From positions 3,633-67,632 of the IMG/VR virus record IMGVR_UViG_2788500332_000005: DNA of 64,000 nt; one strand, given 5' to 3'. This DNA is from a virus (lineage: Duplodnaviria > Caudoviricetes). Below are positions 25,494-26,264 of the stretch, piece after piece. A program made the translations under genes and the position numbers. The stretch's first letter is position 1, and each line of letters opens with the position of its first letter. The notes beneath the pieces are model-generated. The model saw nothing but the letters and a program-made list of their open reading frames with translations, was not told where the DNA came from and did no database searches.

Positions 25494-25570
25494 GCCCACG
25501 ACCGAAGTCGTGGGCGGCTGGTGAGTTGCGTTGCGTGTCGTTGAGAAGCGGCGCGATGCGTTATGGAGGA
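25494..25570 (-). repeat. array B: about 11 units of (NN + CGC-like triplet) followed by a UUCG hairpin
   Basis: Minus strand cat AA cgc AT cgc GC cgc TT ctc AA cga CA cgc AA cgc AA ctc AC cag CC, then GCCCACGAC-TTCG-GTCGTGGGC. Confidence 0.8.
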
Positions 25571-25575
25571 TCAAA

Positions 25576-26148
25576 TCAGGTTTCGGCCCACTCGAAACCG
25601 TCGACATAGAACCGGCCGATCATGCCGCCCTTCTCCGGGCGGAACCTGCCGATGCCGACGAGGCGGCCGGCCTCGACCAGGGCGCGCTCGAAGATGTCCT
25701 TCGGGATCACGTCATCAAGGATGGCGAACGTCGCGGTCCCGGACCACGACTGGATGTAGGGGAAGATGCGCTTGACGCGCTTGCCGCTGCCGCGCACGCC
25801 GTCGGCATTGGCCCAGATGGTGATGGATTCGAGATCGTCCTTCTTGATGCCGATCGGCACGTCGGCGTCGCAGATCTGACCGGCGAGGAAGAACTTGGTG
25901 TAGGTGGACTTACCGCGGCCAGGAATGCCGATATTCAGGCGCTTGATTGCCTCGTCGATCGACATCTTCAGCGCCATGGCCGGGATGCAGACGGTGCCGT
26001 CAGCGTTGACCGTGGACTTCTCTCGCCACAGGCGCTTGTCGTAGCCGGCGGCATCTTCCTTCGGCAGCTTCGGGTGCTCGTCCGGGTCGATCGCCCGACT
26101 CTGCGAATAGGGAGTGGCGGAACGAAGTTCAGCTTTGCAAATGCGCAT
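25576..26148 (-). CDS. RAMP/Cas7-like protein (Vipr-like)
   Basis: N-terminal strand ICKAELRSATPYSQS, central CIPAMALKMSIDEA, C-terminal Gly-rich loop GRLVGIGRFRPEKGGMIGRF; flanked on both sides by 5-nt-period arrays. Confidence 0.7.
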   Translation of the reverse strand: MRICKAELRSATPYSQSRAIDPDEHPKLPKEDAAGYDKRLWREKSTVNADGTVCIPAMALKMSIDEAIKRLNIGIPGRGKSTYTKFFLAGQICDADVPIGIKKDDLESITIWANADGVRGSGKRVKRIFPYIQSWSGTATFAILDDVIPKDIFERALVEAGRLVGIGRFRPEKGGMIGRFYVDGFEWAET

Positions 26149-26163
26149 GATGTTTGCCTTTCA

Positions 26164-26264
26164 GGTGGCTGGTGAGATGCGGGGCGCGGCGGCGTGCCGC
26201 GCTGAGTCGCGCTGCGGCGTGCGGCGGAGAAGCGCGATGCGGGGTCATTTGGTGCGTGAGCACC
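26164..26264 (-). repeat. array A: leader hairpin plus 16 units of (NN + CGC-like triplet); candidate guide RNA
   Basis: Minus strand GGTGC-TCAC-GCACC aaat gac CC cgc AT cgc GC ttc TC cgc CG cac GC cgc AG cgc GA ctc AG cgc GG cac GC cgc CG cgc CC cgc AT ctc AC cag CC acc. Confidence 0.85.

Follow-up and report, generated by a model that had tools for sequence, protein, structure and literature searches.

Why does a prophage carry four short tracts of five-base units around a single small Cas7-like gene, and what do the two variable bases in each unit spell? The window analysed here is a stretch of 64,000 nucleotides from a provirus whose record of 67,632 bp has a CheckV completeness of 100. 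The locus lies in the early region of the provirus, between a DnaG-type primase gene and two genes for XRE-type regulators, and its neighbours are primase, methylases and repressors. It consists of the Cas7-like gene vipr, a conserved gene for a 162-aa partner protein, and the five-base arrays A, B, C and D, all four of which fall within 1.5 kb. A first-pass annotation had read arrays A and B as gapped guides of a VIPR-type system; array D was absent from it.

VIPR systems have been described from type II models in Escherichia phage SUSP1 and in a Pseudomonas fulva prophage, and consist of the small, ancestral RAMP protein Vipr, usually one accessory gene (vap), whose product often binds DNA, and vrRNAs (10.64898/2026.04.26.720920, 10.64898/2026.04.26.720927, 10.64898/2026.10.15.759431). 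In these systems a guide has 9-16 five-base repeats, in which two variable bases pair with DNA and every third base of the target is skipped, and the repeat tract is followed by an invariable structured 3' tail. The natural targets are genes of rival phages and satellites, the skips fall at wobble positions, and a match is accepted when at least 80% of the NN bases agree. The published repeat triplet is GGY, with YNNNG as a variant. The reading proposed here, to which a probability of roughly 0.78 is given, is that arrays A and B are two of the four vrRNA genes of a VIPR system in the 67.6-kb prophage, that array A guides against a portal gene, and that the RNAs are probably made from the vipr strand. 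The features are as follows, in the order in which they are met on the vipr (minus) strand.

26409 to 26436, minus strand: promoter-like site TTGACG-16 nt-TATAGT upstream of array A and vipr, matching the consensus at 10 of 12 positions, the best within 23.5-26.7 kb.
26251 to 26264, no strand assigned: hairpin GGTGC/GCACC adjoining array A, with the loop GUGA on the plus strand and UCAC on the minus strand.
26174 to 26248, minus strand: array A, 15 pentamer units, of which units 2-15 form the probable guide against an HK97-family portal motif.
26167 to 26173, minus strand: constant flank separating array A from the ribosome-binding site of vipr, GGCTGGT on the plus strand and ACCAGCC on the vipr strand.
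25576 to 26148, minus strand: vipr, encoding a 190-aa Cas7-like RAMP protein, from fold and profile matches.
25523 to 25567, minus strand: array B, 8 units (25523-25562) and a degenerate ninth (25563-25567), an AT-rich guide candidate.
25516 to 25522, minus strand: constant flank GGCTGGT of array B.
25494 to 25515, minus strand: 9-bp hairpin whose minus-strand loop is a C(UUCG)G tetraloop, directly after array B and its flank on that strand (-19.1 kcal/mol, z -4.7).
25385 to 25449, minus strand: array C, 13 units, a guide spelling RFTIAHE(F/L)GHY of ImmA-like metallopeptidases, used as positive control.
24873 to 25361, minus strand: gene for the 162-aa partner protein (vap-like), conserved directly behind vipr.
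24821 to 24875, minus strand: array D, 10-11 units, a probable second guide against the same portal gene as array A, motif G(I/M)AWVNRIG.
24289 to 24304, minus strand: terminator-like hairpin with a T-run after it, at the end of the vipr operon.

The GGTGC hairpin of array A has a second copy at 25451-25464, adjoining array C. Array D is placed between the stop codon of the 162-aa gene, which it follows immediately, and the ribosome-binding site of an HTH gene. The long ORF call for this HTH gene (24322-24864, minus strand) begins inside array D, and its true start is probably near 24800, behind an AAGGA site. Array A is itself crossed by a 61-codon ORF (26129-26314, minus strand) that the public record annotates as a gene (L273, 835-1020); it is probably spurious. 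About 60 nt past the promoter-like site on the minus strand, and before the hairpin and array A, there is a GC hairpin followed by a T-run (26334-26348, then TTTTT) that is absent from the output of the terminator scan; it could mark a short RNA, an attenuator or the terminator of the primase gene. A search of 23.5-27.5 kb against Rfam gave three sub-threshold matches only, none of them at an array. Five-base periodicity at 8002-8048 of the window was considered as a further array and rejected, as it sits inside a 475-codon open frame and is probably coding low-complexity sequence.

The units of the four arrays follow one plan. Read on the plus strand, each is a G, then C, A or T, then another G, and then two free bases. 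Among the 46 units, column 1 is G in 42 and column 3 in 41, while column 2 is never G; the triplet columns carry 1.5, 0.6 and 1.4 bits of information and columns 4 and 5 (NN) about 0.03-0.06 bits. When the whole 64-kb window was scanned for phased G-x-G runs (at least 6 of 8 units), the plus strand gave runs only at the four arrays and the minus strand gave one borderline run. The positions assigned to A and B at first pass, 26174-26248 and 25523-25562, hold up, and so do the dinucleotide strings written out for them, apart from a leading 'GT' that belongs to the constant flank GGCTGGT. This flank precedes all four arrays on the plus strand and is also found at the arrays of L001 and L267-L270, so that on the vipr strand ACCAGCC is read after every array. 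A terminal hairpin after ACCAGCC is present only at B among the four; A and C have a hairpin on the opposite side. Two contexts can be distinguished for the arrays, behind a stop codon (B and D) and before a ribosome-binding site (A, C and D). Array A has 15 units, C has 13, D has 10-11, and B has 8-9, which is at or below the published range of 9-16. The unit next to the constant flank acts as an extension of it in A, C and D and matches no target, and in the related locus L270 the first two units are identical across all its arrays. Twenty-six related loci were collected from genome collections and arrays flank vipr in nearly all of them. The variable bases differ between close relatives, whereas the triplets stay the same.

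The protein encoded between arrays A and B is a RAMP protein. Its AF2 model is of high confidence (pLDDT 91.6) and the best PDB folds found for it by Foldseek are type VII Cas7 and Csm3 (E 4.5e-8). A profile of the Vipr family run against the whole PDB gave a single sequence match, the SUSP1 Vipr, at E 9e-4 and over the region from the thumb to the G-loop. The protein has about 1,900 relatives in databases and no Pfam family. The last codons of vipr (G-F-E-W-A-E-T; 25576-25600 of the window) form a 7-bp hairpin at the RNA level, and array B begins a few bases further on. At this C-terminal end the aligned relatives all have the W, and every one except a single sequence has the F; the C-terminus of Vipr may be under a double constraint. 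In L267 and L270-L272 the partner gene follows vipr directly and encodes 162-164 aa; in L269 the homologue has 167 aa and is found some 400 nt downstream. Its product is 46-48% identical to the homologues in L267, L269 and L270. The AF2 model of the partner is weak (pLDDT 73.6), with a winged-helix topology over residues 10-73, and its fold matches to winged-helix regulators are weak as well, at E 0.04 or worse.

What does array A spell? When units 2-15 are read with two bases on and one base off, all 28 specified bases match in three elements, L127, L129 and L138. The matched sites encode the motif (F/L)GRAPLSLAREAIG of HK97-family portal genes; the match is always in frame, the skipped bases are the wobble positions, and these skipped bases vary freely among the sites. 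The ORF carrying the site is a TIGR01537 portal_HK97 protein (E 1e-50 to 1e-57). The search was seeded with units 6-14, a pattern of 18 specified bases, which has 19 exact matches in IMG/VR, and two other 18-base patterns, A units 1-9 and the array of L270 in the position of B, have none. The lack of an exact IMG/VR match for units 1-9 is explained by unit 1, which never matches. Units 2-5 provide eight bases outside the seed, and all eight match in 7 of the 19 loci, compared with a chance mean of 2 of 8. Altogether 22 loci match at 80% or more, three of them at 28/28. With 0, 2 or 3 skipped bases in place of one, no site reaches 80%. The first-pass view of the arrays as gapped guides is supported, and its codon-like reading of array A with a one-base skip was also correct. 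The resemblance seen between the end of array A and the first helix of XRE repressors has to be given up, because the array spells the motif of HK97-family portal proteins.

One of the matched portals is the Gemmobacter nectariphilus portal, others are 95-100% identical to Paracoccus portals, and others reach only 52-67%. A second guide aims at the same gene. Units 2-10 of array D read G(I/M)AWVNRIG and match in the same portal ORFs with up to 18/18 bases, at a site 162-168 nt (about 55 codons) upstream of the array A site. By this sequence agreement, array D confirms the portal gene as the predicted target of array A.

The elements that carry the target are sporadic among the sampled genomes. 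At up to 3 mismatches, 14 units of array A found no site in the 401 genomes from the order of Devosia riboflavina, and 13 units found one in the 101 genomes from the order of Paracoccus litorisediminis. The 30 best HK97 portals from the Devosia riboflavina order have no match to A or D (best 21/28). These 30 portals are taken to be of the gene-transfer-agent (GTA) type; if so, the conserved GTA portal is not the target. The target-bearing elements are proviral, 14-20 kb long, and come from Gemmobacter, Paracoccus and others. Five of them were rated by CheckV at 33-41% of a full phage. The L127 record has 17,661 bp with direct terminal repeats and is thus a complete 17.7-kb unit, rated at 37% of a phage; its size, terminal repeats and CheckV value fit a satellite or a mini-phage. 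Gene content was taken from three elements, each annotated in part. L138 has genes for an integrase, Arc-type and HTH-type regulators, the portal, a protease-capsid fusion, an HNH nuclease and the large terminase; L129 has the portal, the protease-capsid fusion, the HNH nuclease, small and large terminases and a tape-measure-like protein; and L144 has the large terminase and a tape-measure-like protein. The target-bearing elements resemble very small prophages or satellites, and 'satellite' is a guessed label for them. One contig with a portal matched by array A (24/30) carries five-base-period arrays of its own (L125, 8765-9017), in which CC/GG is fixed and three bases are free; these are possibly the vrRNA genes of a rival element.

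Array C served as a positive control. When its core is read under the one-base-skip rule, IMG/VR yields 98 exact matches. All 98 are in frame within long ORFs (median 304 codons) and read RFTIAHE(F/L)GHY, the HExxH motif of ImmA-like proteins, and it follows that the one-base-skip rule applies to this Vipr clade. The array A site was not found in five whole proviruses that bear ImmA, so arrays A and D on the one side and array C on the other aim at different elements. In the carrier genome itself no self-targets were found above shuffled controls. The complete carrier provirus has no TIGR01537 portal, and the array A guide therefore spares its own phage.

By analogy with SUSP1 and P. fulva, Vipr protomers would coat the repeat tract, with one protomer for each five-base unit. 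Each would cover the constant triplet and leave the two variable bases exposed, and the filament would then read double-stranded DNA with two bases on and one off and silence transcription. Under that rule units 2-15 of array A are complementary to codon positions 1 and 2 of the GRAPLSLAREAIG motif in portal genes, and the phage may in this way block head assembly of a rival or parasitic element. Since the guide skips the wobble bases, synonymous changes would give the rival no escape.

Array B lies 13 nt from the vipr stop codon, and the GC content of its variable bases is 19%, compared with 46-67% in the other arrays and 63.7% in the window; the AT-richness remarked on at first pass is thus real. 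Its search results are of little use, as the array offers 14-18 specified bases, too few for a database search to discriminate. The 8 units have more than 120 exact matches in IMG/VR, in unrelated genes of 18-63% GC; units 2-10 have one stray match there, and 10 units searched in metagenomes have one, on a contig of 35% GC. Beyond shuffled controls, no array B site was found in its own phage, in 32 vipr loci, in the 98 ImmA loci or in the 22 portal loci. None was found at up to 2 mismatches in ten whole records (five ImmA proviruses and five portal elements), and a peptide-level scan across all those loci gave no match. The array of L270 in the position of B had no match either as an 18-base pattern. 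These results speak neither for nor against the first-pass suggestion that array B matches a promoter.

It may be asked whether array B works as a guide at all. It might have decayed or been truncated, it might be a decoy, or it might be no more than a Vipr-binding element in the 3' UTR that stabilises or regulates the vipr message. The 8 good units, the 19% GC of the variable bases, and the absence of a target in its own genome or in any vipr, ImmA or portal locus scanned would all be in keeping with this. Against it, the units are as regular as those of array A (7 of 8 are G-x-G) and the constant flank and a stable terminal hairpin have been retained. Close relatives keep an array behind the vipr stop codon with other variable bases, of 13 units in L267 and L270 and 8 in L269, and a missing match is expected for 14-18 specified bases when the host chromosome lies outside the searched set. 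A non-working array B is thus possible but on balance unlikely. Array B is most likely a short guide candidate of the same kind as the others, to judge from its flank, its unit structure and a position that holds arrays in relatives too. It does lack the GGTGC hairpin, as had been said of it, but has its own 9-bp hairpin at 25494-25515 on the other side. The suggestion that it is processed differently holds in part, there being two array contexts. Of the four arrays B comes closest, on the vipr strand, to a published guide that stands alone, with a repeat tract, a constant motif and a stable tetraloop hairpin.

From which strand are the array RNAs made? The DNA target is the same for either strand, and the strand decides which triplet the protein reads. 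Most of the evidence favours the vipr strand, on which the array RNAs would be co-transcribed with the operon and would consist of NN-CGC units with ACCAGCC after them. On the minus strand the operon has the promoter-like site at one end (26436-26409) and the terminator at the other (24304-24289), and the constant motif comes after the arrays, like the tail of published guides. Folding of seven inter-array tails of L015 gives -27.0 kcal/mol and 26 G-U pairs for the vipr strand, compared with -11.1 kcal/mol and 1 G-U pair for the other. L269 has a layout like that of B, with a tetraloop hairpin directly after the array, UUCG and GAAA loops, and G-U pairs on the vipr strand; L270 has hairpins with GAAA and GCAA loops about 25 nt downstream, again with G-U pairs on the vipr strand. 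Written for the vipr strand the unit is C-NN-C-G, which agrees with GGY at two of three constant positions and is compatible with the published variant YNNNG. The two strands could not be told apart by the fold energies of single hairpins or by those of 50-nt flanks.

The first-pass annotation had assumed RNAs from the G-rich plus strand, antisense to vipr, each with a constant 5' leader, then G-x-G/NN units, and for A and C a GGTGC hairpin at the 3' end. This hairpin does have a GNRA loop on the plus strand, which speaks for the assumption, and the published triplet is G-rich and its guanines are read by the protein (10.64898/2026.04.26.720927). On this strand the never-matching unit would be the 5'-most one, in agreement with the published 3'-to-5' assembly. 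The promoter and terminator on the minus strand and the folds of L015, whose 26 G-U pairs become A-C mismatches on the plus strand, argue the other way. In all relatives, too, every array would have to be served by a promoter within the 5' part of the gene next to it, yet no plus-strand promoter-like site was found near any array. The constant motif would come first, at the 5' end, and the variable part after it, which inverts the order known from published guides, and the RNAs of B and D would terminate in sequence antisense to coding regions. The G-rich arrays of SUSP1 run in the same direction as vipr, whereas here they are on the opposite strand in every relative, and the vipr-strand unit fits the published alternative YNNNG. 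Transcription from the plus strand is accordingly considered unlikely. Either answer would widen the known repeat code.

If the RNAs have the sense of vipr, arrays A, C and D are complementary to the coding strand of their targets and could bind the messages of the rival, so that the guides would act on RNA. All three decoded guides do share this polarity, but an agreement of three in three is weak, and in the published systems it is transcription that is repressed, through binding to double-stranded DNA on either strand; action on RNA is regarded as very improbable. Least credible of all, and dropped after a first reading of that kind since the variable bases spell foreign motifs, is that the arrays are TRAP-like protein-binding sites in untranslated regions, with meaningless spacers, which control translation and have no guide role: A, C and D do end 5-10 nt from ribosome-binding sites, and bound Vipr could affect translation as a side effect, but the matches (28/28 in the portal gene for A, 98 exact matches for C, 18/18 for D) are in frame and are obtained with a skip of one only, and it is the variable bases that change between close relatives while the triplets stay.

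With transcription from the vipr strand, a further proposal can be made, although the chances of its being right are put somewhat short of even. The Vipr clade of about 1,900 members might read C-G-C in place of the G-G-Y of SUSP1, on RNAs belonging to the operon message itself. The G-loop Asp, by which the first guanine is read in the published structures, would be replaced by Arg (GIGRF here, GVGDW in SUSP1), and all three decoded guides are antisense to the messages of their targets. Should the C-G-C reading be true, guide loading and expression would be coupled, since the arrays overlap the translation signals of vipr, of the partner gene and of the repressor-like gene.

The locus provides a worked natural example of VIPR beyond the enterobacterial and Pseudomonas models, in an alphaproteobacterial prophage with two probable guides at the portal gene of a rival and a third at an ImmA-type peptidase. 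Each of these guides spells a protein motif that the rival cannot easily change. The one-base-skip rule holds in a clade with another triplet and another array layout, which may be of use in annotating the roughly 1,900 relatives and in reprogramming such systems.

How does the locus compare with known systems? The TRAP sites of the Bacillus trp leader RNA are (G/U)AG triplets with spacers of 2-3 nt. The arrays share with them the phased triplets, the five-base period and the location in untranslated regions; they differ in that the spacers carry information and that the adjacent protein is a RAMP protein and not TRAP. The Cas7 proteins of class 1 CRISPR systems (Csm3, type VII) have the same RAMP fold with a glycine-rich loop, form a protein filament on a guide RNA and withhold bases periodically. 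However, CRISPR repeats, spacers and adaptation genes were not seen in this locus, the period is 5 with 3 bases hidden as opposed to 6 with 1 hidden, and the guide is hard-wired in a gene. The likeness to VIPR is closest. There is one small Cas7-like protein with one putative accessory gene in a prophage, the arrays have about 8-15 units with a fixed triplet and two hypervariable bases and lie on both sides of the gene, and the targets are matched with one-base skips at wobble positions in genes of competing mobile elements, with no self-targeting. As counterpoints, the published triplet GGY gives way to a constant G-C-G, or C-G-C when the complementary strand is read, and the G-rich strand, which in SUSP1 is that of vipr, is here the opposite one. 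Within the operon the arrays directly adjoin stop codons and ribosome-binding sites, a common pseudoknot tail is replaced by ACCAGCC with or without a tetraloop hairpin, and the sequence similarity to the SUSP1 Vipr is marginal (profile E 9e-4). VIPR and its targeting logic have already been published, and what this locus adds to them is the portal target of arrays A and D, the changed triplet and the operon layout.
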